Assembly: GCA_025993875.1 (NCBI GenBank)
Contig: JAMQHH010000014.1
Coordinates: forward strand, 8,009 to 72,008
DNA length: 64,000 nucleotides
Reading direction: 5' to 3'
From: Candidatus Dojkabacteria bacterium
GTDB taxonomy: Bacteria > Patescibacteriota > Dojkabacteria > J137
This document shows positions 9,119-42,683 of this stretch, piece after piece. The position numbers were made by a program, and so were the translations under genes. The first letter of the stretch is position 1, and each line of letters begins with the position of its first letter. Below the pieces are notes generated by a model. That model saw only the letters and a list, made by a program, of their open reading frames with translations. It searched no databases and was not told where the DNA came from.

Positions 9119-9176
9119 GCATAAGTCCAGTGTGCGTGTAATCTTCAATATTGTTTCTAATTCAAGATATAAAGCG

Positions 9177-9248
9177 GCAGATGTAGTTCAATGGTAGAAT
9201 GCTTCCTTCCCAAGGAAGAGGTTGCGAGTTCGATCCTCGTCATCTGCT
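9177..9248 (+). tRNA. tRNA-Gly (anticodon CCC)
   Basis: Cloverleaf folded by hand: acceptor GCAGATG/CATCTGC, D-arm GTTC-AATGGTA-GAAT, anticodon stem CTTCC/GGAAG with loop TTCCCAA (CCC), variable AGGTT, T-arm GCGAG-TTCGATC-CTCGT, discriminator T. No CCA is encoded. Confidence 0.85.
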
Positions 9249-9343
9249 AACAGATCTTCGCATTTGTGTTCAATTGGAAGAATGTCTCGAAGCCATAGCT
9301 TGGCATCTAGTCCCTCTGAGGAGGTTGATCCTGCCCGTAGGTA

Positions 9344-38239: not shown

Positions 38240-39598
38240 TTATTTTATGTACTCTTTACCCAGGTATTTTACTAATGCTTTCGGTACTTTTACGGAGCCA
38301 TCCGATTGCTGATAGTTATCAATAATGGCTATAATCATTCTACCCATTGCTACACCGGTATCATTAACTGTGTGAGCATAAAGTTTGCTTCCATCTCGTT
38401 TTGCGACCTTAATGTTTAGCCTTCGAGCTTGGAAATCAGTAGTATTTGTATCGGTACCTACCTCCATAAATTCCTGCTGTGCTGGTAGCCAAACCTCAGG
38501 ATCTATCTGCTCGGCGCTAGCCAGATAACCCCCATCCGATGTGCATTTGCGAGCTAGTCTATATGGCAATTCGAGTATTTGTAAAAGCCACTCGTTAATT
38601 GATAGTAGTTCGCTAAACATTTCGGAGGATTGTTTTGGTGTACAAACAATATTCATTTCAATCTTGTCAAATTGGTGTACTCTTTTAATTCCCCTTACAT
38701 CCCTACCCCACGACCCCACCTCGCTTCTAAAACATGAGGTATAAGCAAACAATTTTATCGGCAAATCTTCCTCTTTTATTGTTTTACCCATAAAATATGC
38801 AAAATTGCTAGGTTCCGAAGAGCCAACTAGGTAAAGTTCCTCTGAGTTTTCAGTATTATAAGAGTCTATTTTATATGCCTGATCTATGCCTTCCGGGAAG
38901 TGGCTTGTGCCATACAAAACATCATGCTTAACCAGTAATGGCGGGATTTGGTAGATAAATCCCCTTTTTAATAGTTCACTAAATAATAATTGCTGAATTC
39001 CATATTGAAGTAGCGCTCCATCGCCTCTTATATATGTAAATCGGCTGCCAGATGTTATTGCACTCTGCTCGTTATCGATTATCTTTAAATCTTTCCCAAT
39101 ATCTATGTGGTGTTTGGGATTTTGCAATTTTGAATCCCAGTGGACGGATGATTGGTTAAATTCTTGCAGTTTATCTTTTACCTTGCCAAGTTTATCTTTG
39201 TCTAAATATCCTAAACCTGGAAGCCATGCTTTATCAATTGGATTATCATCTTCAGATTTACCAAGGGGCATAGCAATGTCGCTTACTGGAATATTCGGTA
39301 ACCAATCTAGAATTTCCTGCCATTCTTTTTCAATTGCTTCCAGATCCCGCTTTGCATACTCAAGTTTTTCTTTTAATTCACGGCCTTTTTCCCGTGCTAC
39401 TTCTGGATTTTCTTTTCCCAATTGCGCTACATTATTTCTTTCGCGATTTAGTTCTTCCAACTGTTTTATATGTACACTCCTCTTTTCGTCCAGTTCCAGC
39501 CATCTTTTAACATCAGCTTTTTTTGGGTTTCCTCTTCCCGATTCTATTATTTTAATAATTTGCGCTGGGTTTTCTCGAACATATTTGGGATCTATCAT
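38240..39598 (-). CDS. serS: Seryl-tRNA synthetase
   Basis: 452 aa. An N-terminal coiled-coil arm (IDPKYVRENP...LEELNRERN), then a class II core. Confidence 0.9.
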   Translation of the reverse strand: MIDPKYVRENPAQIIKIIESGRGNPKKADVKRWLELDEKRSVHIKQLEELNRERNNVAQLGKENPEVAREKGRELKEKLEYAKRDLEAIEKEWQEILDWLPNIPVSDIAMPLGKSEDDNPIDKAWLPGLGYLDKDKLGKVKDKLQEFNQSSVHWDSKLQNPKHHIDIGKDLKIIDNEQSAITSGSRFTYIRGDGALLQYGIQQLLFSELLKRGFIYQIPPLLVKHDVLYGTSHFPEGIDQAYKIDSYNTENSEELYLVGSSEPSNFAYFMGKTIKEEDLPIKLFAYTSCFRSEVGSWGRDVRGIKRVHQFDKIEMNIVCTPKQSSEMFSELLSINEWLLQILELPYRLARKCTSDGGYLASAEQIDPEVWLPAQQEFMEVGTDTNTTDFQARRLNIKVAKRDGSKLYAHTVNDTGVAMGRMIIAIIDNYQQSDGSVKVPKALVKYLGKEYIK

Positions 39599-39682
39599 AA
39601 TAGCAATTTATCTAAAAACTATTGAAGTGATTATACAACTTTGTGTCGAAAATGTGATAAAATGGCTGTAATTCTAATATAG

Positions 39683-39816
39683 CGTTGATGGGGTGGCATC
39701 CCTGAGCTAGGAATAAAAAGAGAGCCCGAAATGTTTTCGGGAAGTTGGGTGGAACCGCGATTCAAAATTTGAACCGTCCCATATAAACAATATTTTGTTT
39801 ATTGGACGGTTTTTTT
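39683..39816 (+). promoter_or_regulatory. T-box-like riboswitch leader (glycine-type) with antiterminator/terminator
   Basis: AGTTGGGTGGAACCGCGATT at 39743-39762 matches the T-box consensus AATTAGGGTGGNACCGCG. The UGGA bulge predicts pairing to a tRNA ending UCCA, which is consistent with the tRNA-Gly at 9177. The stem III-like hairpin CCCGAAA-tg-TTTCGGG at 39725-39741 is immediately 5'. A GGC-A candidate specifier is at 39695-39698. An intrinsic terminator at 39774-39816 is immediately 3'. Confidence 0.4.
39774..39816 (+). terminator. Rho-independent terminator (terminator arm of the T-box leader)
   Basis: CCGTCC-cat-ATAAACAA-tatt-TTGTTTAT-tg-GGACGG followed by TTTTTTT. Confidence 0.6.
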
Positions 39817-39828
39817 ATATTTTAAATT

Positions 39829-40385
39829 ATGCTGTTTAATAAAAAATACAGGGTTGAAACAATACGTAAAAAGAATTTTGATTATTCCAGTGCGGGATAT
39901 TATTTTGTTACGATATGCACACGCAATAGACAGAATTTTTTGGTAGAGTAGAAAACGAGGCAATACAATTAACAAAATTAGGTGAAATCGCAAAATTATG
40001 TATAGGAGAAATACCAAAACATTTTCCAAATGTTTTGGTAGATAAATTTGTTGTTATGCCCAACCATGTGCATATTTTGATACAAATTTTGCAAAACAAC
40101 GTTGCAGAGACGCAAAATTTTGAGTCTCTACGAAATGATACAAACGGCAAAACACAATTCGAAAATTTTGCGTCTCTACGGAATAAAAACTGGCATGCAA
40201 ATAAATTTGGGCCACAATCAAAAAATTTGGCATCGATAATCCGTGGTTACAAAATCGGGGTAACAAAATTATCTAAAAAAATAAATATAAATTTTTCCTG
40301 GCAATCGCGGTATTATGAAACTATAATAAAAACAGAACGAGATCTATTTAATGTTAGAAATTATATAGATCAAAACATTGCATGA
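39829..40385 (+). pseudogene. tnpA: IS200/IS605-family Y1 (HUH) transposase of the RAYT/TnpA-REP type, interrupted by a frameshift in a poly-T tract
   Basis: Frame 1 from ATG 39829 gives MLFNKKYRVETIRKKNFDYSSAGYYFVTICTRNRQNFLVE*, a RAYT N-terminus (YR..G.YFFT....R). Frame 0 continues (T)EFFGRVENEAIQ...VDKFVVMPNHVHILIQ (HUH motif)...SWQSRYYETIIKTERDLFNVRNYIDQN (RAYT C-terminal catalytic-Tyr region). Adding one T to the T6 run at 39936-39941 restores a single ORF of about 186 aa. Either a pseudogene or a sequencing error. Confidence 0.6.
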
Positions 40386-40428
40386 TCGAATTTAAATGCA
40401 AATTTTAATATTTTATATTTAGAAATTA

Positions 40429-41874
40429 ATGAATCAGCAAAATGTTACCGAAACAGTTTCACAGTCTAACAGTGTTTTAACCTCGCTTGAACAATTTAAA
40501 TCTTGGGCAAAAGAGAATGGATTTATTTATCCTTCCAGTGAAATTTATGGAGGATTTGCTGCAGTGTACGATTACGGGCATTACGGGATATTACTAAAAA
40601 ATAATATTCAAAGACTGTGGGAAAAATCTATGGTTCAAGAAAGAGAGGACGTATATCTTTTAGATTCGGGAATTTTTATGCACCCAAAAACCTGGGTAGC
40701 ATCGGGGCATGTAGGGGGGTTTGAAGATGTTTTGGTGGAAGATAAAAAGACACATAAAAGATTTAGGGCTGATCACCTTGTTGAAGAATGGTTTGAAAAA
40801 CATGGTAAATCTGTAGATATGGATAAAAAAACTGCCGCAGAGCTTTCGGAACTTATAAAAGCCAATAATATAAAAAGCCCGGACGGTAACGAATTAACTG
40901 AACCCAGAAGCTTTAATCTTCTTGTAAAATCTAACATGGGAACAACTGATGCAAGTTTTAATAACGAAAATGTAACATATTTAAGAGGAGAAACATGTCA
41001 GGGTATTTATTTGGAATACAAAAATTTTAGAGATACTTTGCGCCCAAAACTTCCATTTGGAATTGCTCAGGTAGGCAAGGCATTTAGGAACGAAATTGTA
41101 GCACGCCAGTTTATATTTAGAACAAGAGAGTTTGAGCAAATGGAGATGCAGTATTTCCATAATCCCAAGGATAAAGAGAAATTGTTTGATATGTGGAAAA
41201 ACGAGAGAATGAACTGGCTTGTAAATGTGCTTGGGATTTCCTCGGAAAACCTGCGATTTAAAAAACATGAAAAACTTGTTTTTTATGCAACAGCAGCGTT
41301 TGATATAGAATACAATTTCAAGACCTTGGGAGGTTTTAAAGAACTCGAAGGTATACATGACAGAGGTGACTATGATCTAACGCAGCACTCTAAGTTTTCG
41401 GGTGAAAAACTGGATTATTTTGACCAGGAGAGTGGGGAAAGGTTTACACCTCATATTATGGAAACCTCGGTAGGGCTAAATCGTTTACTTATGATGGTAC
41501 TGGAAGAAGGATGGGTGGTAGAGGAGATAGTAAATGCTAAAGGGGAAAAAGATAAAAGGATTGTTTTAAAAATTAAACCGGAACTTTCGCCAATTAAAAT
41601 TGCAATACTTCCGTTATCTCGAAAAATAGAGCTGCAAACAAAGGCGAAGGAGGTACTAAATATTCTAAAAGGAACTTATCAAACACAATACGATGAGACG
41701 GCTTCGATTGGAAAAAGATATCGAAGACAAGACGAAATTGGTACACCTTATTGTTTAACTGTAGATTTTGATTCTTTGACCGATAATTCTGTTACGGTAA
41801 GGGATAGAGATACAATGAAACAAGAGAGAATAGAAATTTCTCAACTGAAAGATTATTTTAAATTAAAACTTTGA
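40429..41874 (+). CDS. glyQS: Glycyl-tRNA synthetase, dimeric (alpha2, archaeal/eukaryal-like) type
   Basis: 481 aa. NGFIYPSSEIYGGFAAVYDYGHYG, HPKTWVASGHVGGF, and FRNEI class II motifs are present, followed by a C-terminal anticodon-binding domain. Confidence 0.85.
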   Translation: MNQQNVTETVSQSNSVLTSLEQFKSWAKENGFIYPSSEIYGGFAAVYDYGHYGILLKNNIQRLWEKSMVQEREDVYLLDSGIFMHPKTWVASGHVGGFEDVLVEDKKTHKRFRADHLVEEWFEKHGKSVDMDKKTAAELSELIKANNIKSPDGNELTEPRSFNLLVKSNMGTTDASFNNENVTYLRGETCQGIYLEYKNFRDTLRPKLPFGIAQVGKAFRNEIVARQFIFRTREFEQMEMQYFHNPKDKEKLFDMWKNERMNWLVNVLGISSENLRFKKHEKLVFYATAAFDIEYNFKTLGGFKELEGIHDRGDYDLTQHSKFSGEKLDYFDQESGERFTPHIMETSVGLNRLLMMVLEEGWVVEEIVNAKGEKDKRIVLKIKPELSPIKIAILPLSRKIELQTKAKEVLNILKGTYQTQYDETASIGKRYRRQDEIGTPYCLTVDFDSLTDNSVTVRDRDTMKQERIEISQLKDYFKLKL

Positions 41875-42683
41875 ACAAAGAACTTTTAGATGTTTTGGCC
41901 TTGTGGCAATTTGGGAAAGAGGTGGAATTGCCGGAAGGCTTTATTGAAGCCCATGGCGTTTTTAAACCTGGAGAACCATATAATAAGGCTGCACTAGAAA
42001 AAATAATCCCTATTTCTGAGATTTCCGGTTTAATAAGTGAAGCTGTAAAAGCAAAAAAACATGTATTACTTTTATCGGGAAGTTTTGATGTTCTGCATAT
42101 AGGCCATTACTTTTATTTAAATAGTATTAAAAGTTTGGCTAAAGAAGTTTTAAAAGTAGCTGATGATAATATTTTTATCGTTGTAGTTGTAGATTCCGAT
42201 AACATTGTTGCTCAATTAAAGGATAAAAATTGGGCTAGCGCGGGAGGAAATAGATATGGAACAATTCCTATTGATCCTTTAATAGTTCGGGTGTTAAAGC
42301 TTTCGTGTATAAATGTTGTTAATTTAATATCTGTTTTACAGGGCTCTCCTGCCGATATTGAGGCACTTCAATACAATTTTATGAAAAAAATTTCTTTAAG
42401 AAGTGGGGTTGATCTTGGGAGGGTACATCGTGTTATTCCATTAGGGGAATCTTATAGTAACACTTTAAAAGAGATAACATTGGCAGCAGGGCTTGCACCT
42501 TTTTTATGCAATATAAGCACTCTACAAACTACTGCAAATATAATGAGAAGCTTTGCAATAGAATCTGCATCTCAAAACACAAATCCTTATGCCGAGCTCA
42601 AATCTCTAATGGAAATAGTTGCAAGCCCTCTCTCACCATTTTACAAAAGCGCTATAATAAAGCTTTTCGAACAGCAACCTTAA
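41871..42683 (+). CDS. HIGH-motif nucleotidyltransferase (cytidylyl/adenylyl-transferase-like) family protein
   Basis: 270 aa. LLSGSFDVLHIGH is the (T/H)xGH nucleotidyltransferase signature. Overlaps the glyQS stop by 4 nt (ATGA). Confidence 0.5.
   Translation: MNKELLDVLALWQFGKEVELPEGFIEAHGVFKPGEPYNKAALEKIIPISEISGLISEAVKAKKHVLLLSGSFDVLHIGHYFYLNSIKSLAKEVLKVADDNIFIVVVVDSDNIVAQLKDKNWASAGGNRYGTIPIDPLIVRVLKLSCINVVNLISVLQGSPADIEALQYNFMKKISLRSGVDLGRVHRVIPLGESYSNTLKEITLAAGLAPFLCNISTLQTTANIMRSFAIESASQNTNPYAELKSLMEIVASPLSPFYKSAIIKLFEQQP

Follow-up and report, generated by a model that had tools for sequence, protein, structure and literature searches.

A putative pared-down glycine T-box of the terminator type upstream of glyS in Candidatus Dojkabacteria, followed by a long-resident RAYT-like gene

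Four architectures of T-box riboswitches are listed in PMC10482949. [quoted passage not shown] Class III leaders have a short Stem I with an apical-loop specifier, require Stem II and are mostly translational, and Class IV leaders are composed of an intermediate Stem I and Stem II. Binding of the tRNA is augmented by the IDTM, by the S-turn of Stem II, or by both (PMC10482949). The long Stem I platform has been ascribed to the need of transcriptional T-boxes to catch the tRNA fast, a short Stem I being regarded as functional only together with Stem II (PMC7583486, PMC10482949), and reviews explain glycine T-boxes without Stem II by the very stable GGC:GCC duplex. Here we describe a leader upstream of glyS, the gene of a glycyl-tRNA synthetase (GlyRS), in a 64-kb stretch of Candidatus Dojkabacteria DNA (Candidate Phyla Radiation (CPR)/Patescibacteria; in the following the window, in whose numbering all positions are given). 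By its sequence, its Stem I is of the Class III type and its linker of the Class II type; it ends in a terminator and possesses neither of the two augmenting contacts. No report of T-boxes in CPR or Patescibacteria was found in the literature searched.

We consider it probable that the region 39681-39816 is a pared-down, glycine-specific, transcription-terminating T-box and that a RAYT-like gene situated between it and glyS is a long-resident, co-regulated passenger (Table 1). The T-box reading is based on sequence elements, helices that exclude each other, covariation, a codon that fits the regulated gene, the match of the discriminator base and the comparative gene arrangement. The gene order is serS (minus strand), a 230-nt intergenic region, a Y1 transposase-like gene split over two frames, a 43-nt spacer and glyS. 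A T-box specific for glycine had been proposed in the original prediction, and the glycine codon in the loop of a leader upstream of a GlyRS gene agrees with this. The assignment of the downstream gene to glyQS has to be corrected: due to the domains tRNA-synt_2b and HGTP_anticodon in a GlyRS of 481 aa, it is of the single-chain glyS type. GlyRS homologues labelled Candidatus Dojkabacteria reach up to 86% identity. The 830 nt from 39599 to 40428 were found without any difference in six independent Logan assemblies.

Table 1. Features of the leader, the inserted gene and the flanking genes in the window.
Feature	Position	Strand	Remarks
Putative extended -10 element, TGaTAAAAT	39655..39663	+	Read from sequence; predicted start near 39670
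Ultrashort Stem I, 28-nt hairpin	39681..39708	+	Agrees at its base with the Stem I consensus of Rfam
Specifier codon GGC (Gly), followed by purine A39698	39695..39697	+	Stem I apex
Single-stranded A-rich linker, ending in GAGAG (39720-39724)	39709..39724 (16 nt)	+	
Stem III of 7 bp with loop UGU; AA (39742-39743) comes next	39725..39741	+	7/7 pairs covary across relatives
Antiterminator	39746..39781	+	-8.0 kcal/mol computed; helices A1 and A2
Intrinsic terminator; hairpin 39773-39810, U-run 39810-39816	39773..39816	+	-18.0 kcal/mol computed
RAYT-like Y1 gene, N-terminal frame, 40 codons, then TAG	39829..39951	+	Covered by full-length homologues
T6 run, frame break	39936..39941	+	One T short of intact homologues
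RAYT-like gene, C-terminal frame	39939..40385	+	HUH motif PNHVHIL, catalytic Tyr region SRYYETI
glyS, single-chain (alpha2-type) glycyl-tRNA synthetase	40429..41874	+	Proposed regulated target
serS	38240..39598	-	Divergent to the leader; bounds its 5' extent; context only
tRNA-Gly(CCC), discriminator U73	9176..9249	+	Ends ...CAUCUGC-U; context only

The closest described relatives are Class II leaders such as that of Bacillus subtilis glyQS (PMC10482949). Common to both are the specificity for glycine, a GGC specifier followed by a purine, a kink-turn (K-turn) at the base of Stem I, a single-stranded linker in place of Stem II, the RRRxG-Stem III-AA string, the bulge UGGAACC, a G-U pair capping helix A2, and the competition of an intrinsic terminator with the antiterminator. 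In contrast to Class II, the leader of the window lacks the entire distal half of Stem I, with the Specifier loop's S-turn side, the AG bulge and the distal loop (IDTM); Stem I ends in an apical loop, and it is this loop, not an internal one, that holds the codon. Further differences are the one-chain glyS target, the CPR host and an Rfam score of approximately half the gathering score. With the ileS leaders of Nocardia farcinica and Mycobacterium tuberculosis, which represent Class III (Sherwood et al. 2015, as cited in PMC7583486; PMC10482949), it shares, as far as those leaders are summarised there, a short Stem I without IDTM and a Specifier placed in a small apical loop directly over a K-turn. 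According to the same summaries, Class III leaders have and require a Stem II with S-turn and a IIA/B pseudoknot, neither of which occurs in the leader of the window, and they act translationally by sequestration of the Shine-Dalgarno sequence, are specific for isoleucine and occur in Actinobacteria, whereas a U-run terminator and a glycine codon are found here. A Shine-Dalgarno sequestrator without terminator, as in Class III and IV, was not observed, since all leaders possess a hairpin and U-run terminator. T-boxes of staphylococcal and clostridial glyS genes (PMC4574755, PMC9177973, PMC11404447) resemble the locus in the control of a single-chain glyS and in lineage-specific insertions and deletions, but retain a full-length Stem I that includes AG bulge and apical loop. 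The truly unusual trait, which escaped the original prediction, is the predicted ultrashort Stem I without Stem II on a T-box of the terminator type.

In the discriminator half, GGGTGGAACCGCG occurs a single time in the window, at 39747-39759 on the plus strand, with 0.01 matches expected by chance if up to one mismatch is allowed. The match to the T-box consensus noticed earlier is thereby substantiated, and so are the hairpin in Stem III position on its 5' side and the strong intrinsic terminator on its 3' side. A local Infernal scan with the Rfam T-box model RF00230 yielded 48.6 bits (E 6.3e-10) and aligned the 3' half with high posterior probability. At the gathering score of 93 bits, only two tRNAs and no T-box were detected in the window, because half of the model is missing in the leader; recognition by RF00230, to which the original prediction had pointed, was thus obtained in the local scan and failed at the gathering score. 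GAGAG, Stem III and AA (39720-39743) correspond to the RRRxG/AA purine string of the discriminator (motif defined in PMC7583486 and PMC11404447), with equivalent flanks in 11/11 of the leaders introduced below.

Helix A1 of the antiterminator (39746-49/39778-81, 4 bp) is separated from helix A2 by the 7-nt T-box bulge UGGAACC (39750-39756), which is invariant in the 11 leaders. The terminal pair of A2 is the wobble G39757-U39777, which is G-U in 10 of the 11 leaders and A-U in the remaining one, and both helices covary. An antiterminator alternative to the terminator, as the original prediction demanded, can thus be drawn. Both structures have 39773-39781 in common, the 5' arm of the terminator hairpin serving as 3' strand of the antiterminator, and are therefore mutually exclusive, at -8.0 versus -18.0 kcal/mol. 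These energies and the shared strand represent the usual T-box logic, with termination as the default. In the relatives, all leaders likewise possess a hairpin and U-run terminator overlapping the antiterminator.

As stated earlier, the UGGA of the bulge predicts a tRNA with discriminator U, and U73 is present in tRNA-Gly(CCC) of the window as well as in tRNA-Gly(GCC) of the relative L183. Neither of these tRNA-Gly genes (L183:7337-7409 in the latter) encodes the 3' CCA, which therefore must be added post-transcriptionally, so that the T-box bulge would have to pair with the added end.

Stem I reads AGC-GUU-GA-U-GGG[GUGGCAU]CCC-U-GA-GCU, which corresponds to a C-stem AGC/GCU, a bulge GUU, a 3-bp GGG/CCC stem and an apical loop GUGGCAU. 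The K-turn is made up of the GUU bulge and tandem G.A pairs (39687-88 with 39704-05). Across the leaders, Stem I consists of the K-turn, 3-5 bp and an apical loop of 5-7 nt that holds the codon, and the GA/GA motif of the K-turn is clear in 7/11. The specifier GGC can pair with the anticodon of a tRNA-Gly(GCC), and such a tRNA was found in L183. The apical loop reads GUUGGAAU in L091, CUUGGCAA in L094, CUUUGGCAA in L180, AAUGGCAU in L098 and L099, AGUGGCGC in L183, AGUGGCAC in L017 and GAUUGGAU in L015. Altogether, the loops of the 11 leaders contain GGC in seven cases, GGA in two, possibly GGU in one (L092) and GCC in one (L182). Among the glycine codons, variation is confined to the third position, as is expected for the putative glycine specifier. 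Downstream of Stem I, neither a Stem II nor a IIA/B pseudoknot can be formed in the linker, and 11/11 leaders have an unpaired, A-rich linker of 11-25 nt.

These relatives were identified at the glyS loci of GlyRS homologues with 60-86% identity, obtained by exact-protein look-ups. Due to the failure of MAFFT to align Stem I, a covariance model was seeded on the window sequence alone and then iterated with the leaders found. The seed model detected one leader upstream of glyS in nine further lineages, namely L091, L092, L094/L096, L098, L099, L180, L182, L183 and L017, the last being a metagenome-assembled genome labelled Micavibrio with a GlyRS that groups with CPR sequences. The rebuilt model added L015 (Moraniibacteriota), which brings the set to 11 leaders, distributed over the Dojkabacteria and two further CPR lineages. 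With filters off, it revealed nothing else in the window (next best match 14 bits), and no match in 77 more distant GlyRS loci (483 kb; mostly labelled Actinomycetota and Bacteroidota). RF00230 scores of nine relatives range from 35.7 to 55.9 bits, those of L182 and L183 result from matches of no more than 105-109 nt (the model has 219 positions), and the leader of L015 was undetected at E<0.01. All scores being under the threshold, routine annotation misses every one of the 11 leaders. In L015 (2809-2872), the loop of antiterminator helix A2 contains an insertion of approximately 50 nt, which is reminiscent of the staphylococcal "stem Sa".

Canonical T-boxes of at least 93 bits were absent upstream of glyS in 20 other loci of the closest GlyRS homologues, mostly labelled CPR. 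A strict motif search in the best 88 loci of protein-guided contig scans returned the species of the window only; among the matches listed, these scans comprise mostly distant GlyRS loci with at most 57% identity. Within the Dojkabacteria, L184 (2920-3000) and L009 (2600-3000) lack a T-box upstream of glyS, the serS-glyS spacer of L184 being just 81 nt long. The leader is thus not universal in the phylum.

In the alignment of the 11 sequences, 97.1% of the cells form standard pairs, compared to 68% after shuffling and 40-52% when the partners were slid. Both sides change in 17 of the 22 pairs, and none of 500 shuffles reached the covariation score. All five helices are supported by covariation, including both helices of Stem I, for which two-sided changes occur in 6/6 pairs, with 94-100% of the cells paired.

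A Y1/RAYT-like gene between the terminator and the GlyRS gene had been recognised before and was recovered at 39829-40385. It is split by a -1 frameshift at the T6 run. The frameshift is identical in the six independent assemblies, and tblastn shows the same split in 7/7 assemblies including a seventh, L007, from which the full 830-nt span is absent. We therefore regard the frameshift, which was part of the original prediction, as real, with the start of the T-run corrected to 39936. Addition of one T to the run restores a protein of 185 aa with the HUH motif (HVH in PNHVHILI) and the catalytic tyrosine (YY in SRYYETI). The repaired product matches Pfam Y1_Tnp with 24.4 bits (cutoff 23) and NCBIfam NF047646 REP_Tyr_transpos with 46.3 bits (E 3.9e-12), the latter below the cutoff of 80. 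Uninterrupted homologues of 180-230 aa, many of them named RayT, number thousands across phyla, and a sequence search of the PDB gave only marginal matches to IS200-family transposases (E approximately 0.3). With known RAYTs and the Y1 HUH transposases TnpA of IS200/IS605 elements, the gene shares the HUH motif, the catalytic Tyr region, the length of approximately 185 aa after repair and the occurrence as a single copy. Unlike these, it lacks tnpB, is frameshifted and is set between a riboswitch and an essential gene. Arrays of repetitive extragenic palindromes, repeated palindromes and flanking subterminal hairpins were present neither in the 64 kb nor beside the gene, and a search for insertion sequence ends, target duplications and other RAYT copies yielded nothing convincing; in the window the gene is single-copy.

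A homologue occurs at the same site in L089, the closest relative with available sequence (GlyRS 86% identical), where the contig starts inside the gene. The ratio of nonsynonymous to synonymous substitutions (dN/dS) between both copies is 0.17 over 91 aligned codons. Position and ratio together point to a long residence of the RAYT-like gene under purifying selection; its frameshift is either recent or bypassed.

In L092, L098, L180, L182 and L015, glyS follows directly, 35-150 nt downstream of the terminator. Seven lineages contain genes in the spacer between terminator and glyS, i.e., the RAYT-like gene in the window and in L089, a 103-aa open reading frame (ORF) plus a 23S-rRNA-IVS-type (four-helix-bundle) protein in L091, a 155-aa ORF in L094/L096, a DUF559 protein in L099, a 105-aa ORF in L183 and a 123-aa ORF in L017. 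The ORFs of different lineages have no mutual similarity. Considering both these unrelated ORFs and the loci with a direct T-box-glyS arrangement, independent insertions are the simplest reading, which suggests that the spacer is a recurrent insertion site inside a T-box-glyS unit. A gene in this position, originally called unusual, is thus not so in this clade. Of the two alternatives offered by the original prediction, insertion of the RAYT-like gene into the leader-to-glyS spacer, with readthrough into glyS, appears to be the better reading in view of the related loci with a T-box directly upstream of glyS. Capture of the riboswitch for control of the transposase is not supported as its purpose, since the leader is conserved with or without RAYT.

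The start codon of the RAYT-like gene is located 13 nt past the U-run, which leaves no space for a promoter of its own, and no other strong plus-strand terminator occurs between 39817 and 40428. Furthermore, the leader of the window is fully intact although synonymous sites of glyS are saturated in comparison with L089 (dS 2.3). Taken together, these observations favour a single T-box-gated transcript; most likely, RAYT and glyS would be read through together, and the RAYT-like gene is probably co-regulated as a passenger.

From these elements we infer the following course of regulation. Transcription would start near 39670. The 28-nt Stem I would fold with its K-turn and three G-C pairs and expose GGC followed by A in the apical loop, which would pair with the anticodon of tRNA-Gly(GCC). 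The 16-nt A-rich linker would then lead into the discriminator, composed of GAGAG, Stem III, AA and the antiterminator. In case of an uncharged tRNA, its 3'-UCCA is predicted to pair with UGGA of the bulge and thereby to stabilise the antiterminator, which by itself is weak (-8 kcal/mol); failing this, the terminator (-18 kcal/mol) would form and transcription would stop at 39816. Readthrough transcripts would cross the RAYT-like gene into glyS.

It is tempting to go one step further, and with some reserve we lean towards the view that these leaders represent a fifth T-box architecture, carried by CPR bacteria, of approximately 105 nt and of the terminator type, with a spacer in which small or selfish genes of unrelated kinds have landed repeatedly. 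The tRNA would then be recognised by two contacts only, "kissing" of codon and anticodon at the apical loop and binding of the NCCA end at the discriminator. As predicted from sequence, such a leader has neither the IDTM nor the S-turn of Stem II, whereas each of the four classes described so far possesses one or both. The stability of the GGC:GCC duplex may likewise have permitted the loss of the platform in this clade. If the spacer is such a landing site, the genes in it (RAYT, DUF559, 23S-rRNA-IVS protein and orphan ORFs) would become inducible by tRNA-Gly starvation.

Several observations weigh against a functional T-box of this kind. The IDTM is described as essential in transcriptional T-boxes, and tRNA binding by a truncated Stem I without Stem II as negligible (PMC7583486). 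Folded as single sequences, the Stem I hairpins are no stabler than shuffles (z -1.9 to +0.3), so that support for Stem I comes from covariation in model-fitted alignments, which are biased to the model; the 11 leaders are moreover mutually related, and the covariation counts from this model-fitted alignment overstate the number of independent events. In L182, an otherwise typical leader (2832-2934), the loop reads AGUGCCGC compared to AGUGGCGC in its sister lineage L183, that is, GCC (Ala) in place of GGC; this is the sole leader without a glycine codon, and the change may be genuine or result from faulty assembly. In L092, a weak and ambiguous Stem I is observed. The RF00230 score of the window leader is far below the gathering score, no gene for tRNA-Gly(GCC) is present in the 64 kb, and promoter-like sites near the 3' end of the RAYT-like gene could drive glyS independently.

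Some of these points would also fit a switch in decay, in which the terminator/antiterminator pair still forms and the truncated Stem I no longer selects tRNA-Gly, leaving a constitutive or generic attenuator (responding, e.g., to any uncharged U73 tRNA) or a leaky terminator. The missing IDTM and Stem II with the negligible binding reported for a truncated Stem I, the GCC in the loop of L182 and the weak Stem I of L092 would all be in agreement with it, as would the glyS loci of L184 and L009, according to which the element is dispensable. We nevertheless consider this unlikely, since a relic hairpin is not expected to be so maintained: both helices of Stem I covary on either side of every pair, the GA/GA motif of the K-turn is retained in the majority of leaders, and the glycine codon is kept, with third-position changes only, across GlyRS proteins of 52-86% identity.

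Quite improbable, in our estimation, is a T-box that gates only the frameshifted RAYT-like gene, with glyS transcribed mainly from a promoter inside or after this gene. Promoter-like sequences are present at 40298-40327 (CTGGCA-18-TATAAT, 10/12 matches) and 40391-40419, the first of which also occurs in L089. The promoter scan, however, found nine sites versus 6.4 +/- 2.5 in shuffles, i.e., no enrichment, and the TATAAT lies within the conserved codons of the catalytic Tyr region, so that its conservation is explained by coding. In addition, a leader kept intact at a glyS dS of 2.3 is hard to explain if it gates a passenger only. A transcript that runs from the T-box through RAYT into glyS thus remains the reading we prefer.

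Very little speaks for a canonical long Stem I in the AT-rich region 39597-39680, with the hairpin at 39681-39708 as the remnant of a Stem II. It is the arrangement suggested by cmscan, in whose RF00230 alignment (39597-39784) the hairpin falls into the Stem II/IIA-B region. This placement was rejected: 39597-39680 overlaps the serS start codon (39596-39598) and a promoter-like site of serS on the minus strand (39658..39630), and it is aligned with several mismatched pairs and low posterior probabilities. The same promoter-like site overlaps the putative -10 element of the leader, which leaves no space for a long Stem I. In relatives, TATAAT (L180, L182 and L183) or TATTAT occurs 8-25 nt upstream of the hairpin, in L015 as TTGACA-17-TATTAT, and with promoters abutting the hairpin in several leaders a long Stem I cannot fit. 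The short extent of the RF00230 matches in L182 and L183 and the base of the hairpin, which fits the K-turn consensus of Stem I (AGCGUUGAUGGG...CCCUGAGCU), are in line with an ultrashort Stem I. A chance T-box-like motif beside an ordinary terminator, for which only the lack of a match at the Rfam gathering score could be adduced, is refuted by the comparative data and has practically no probability left, as conservation upstream of glyS in 11 lineages extends from the motif and its bulge to the flanks of Stem III, the G-U pair and the overlap with the terminator, and no such leader was found in the 77 more distant GlyRS loci.

We thus regard the leader as a genuine T-box of a new minimal architecture and with a new phylum-level distribution, the function of which we infer. 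A conserved leader with terminator but without IDTM and Stem II would set a new lower bound for the sensing of tRNA charging, and the known range of T-boxes would come to include the Candidate Phyla Radiation. Such a mini T-box would be a natural scaffold of very small size for engineering and would bear on the question of the ancestral T-box class. The locus would also illustrate that a transposase-like gene can persist for long, and under purifying selection, within a riboswitch-controlled essential operon.

Several minor observations concern the RAYT-like gene. Its dS against L089 (39829-40385 vs L089:1-384, 91 codons) is 0.74 and thus much below the saturated dS of glyS, which may reflect a later exchange of RAYT between lineages or small-sample noise. 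The context of the frame break at 39934-39942, AAU UUU UUG (U_UUU_UUG), has the form of an X_XXY_YYZ slippery heptamer for -1 frameshifting. A -1 slip at this putative site may give rise to the full-length 185-aa protein; no stimulatory structure was detected within 10 nt downstream of it. Within the coding sequence, at 40012-40040 and 40106-40177, there are a perfect 13-bp palindrome TACCAAAACATTT/AAATGTTTTGGTA and a 16-nt inverted repeat AGAGACGCAAAATTTT/AAAATTTTGCGTCTCT. The latter is part of a direct repeat encoding xNFxSLR, of which more copies exist in L089.

Downstream of glyS, a 270-aa ORF (41871-42683) shares 4 nt with the glyS stop codon and is conserved in L089. It has a weak cytidylyltransferase-like Pfam match (E 0.002) and probably belongs to the same T-box-gated transcript as glyS. 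In the relatives L094, L182 and L183, a conserved ORF of 585-587 aa without Pfam domain is situated two genes downstream of glyS. Upstream of this ORF, matches to the cobalamin riboswitch were observed at L094:5202-5318, L182:5251-5346 and L183:5418-5507. No counterpart was found in the window at the Rfam gathering score; this score is exceeded by the match in L094, and those in L182 and L183 are slightly below it.

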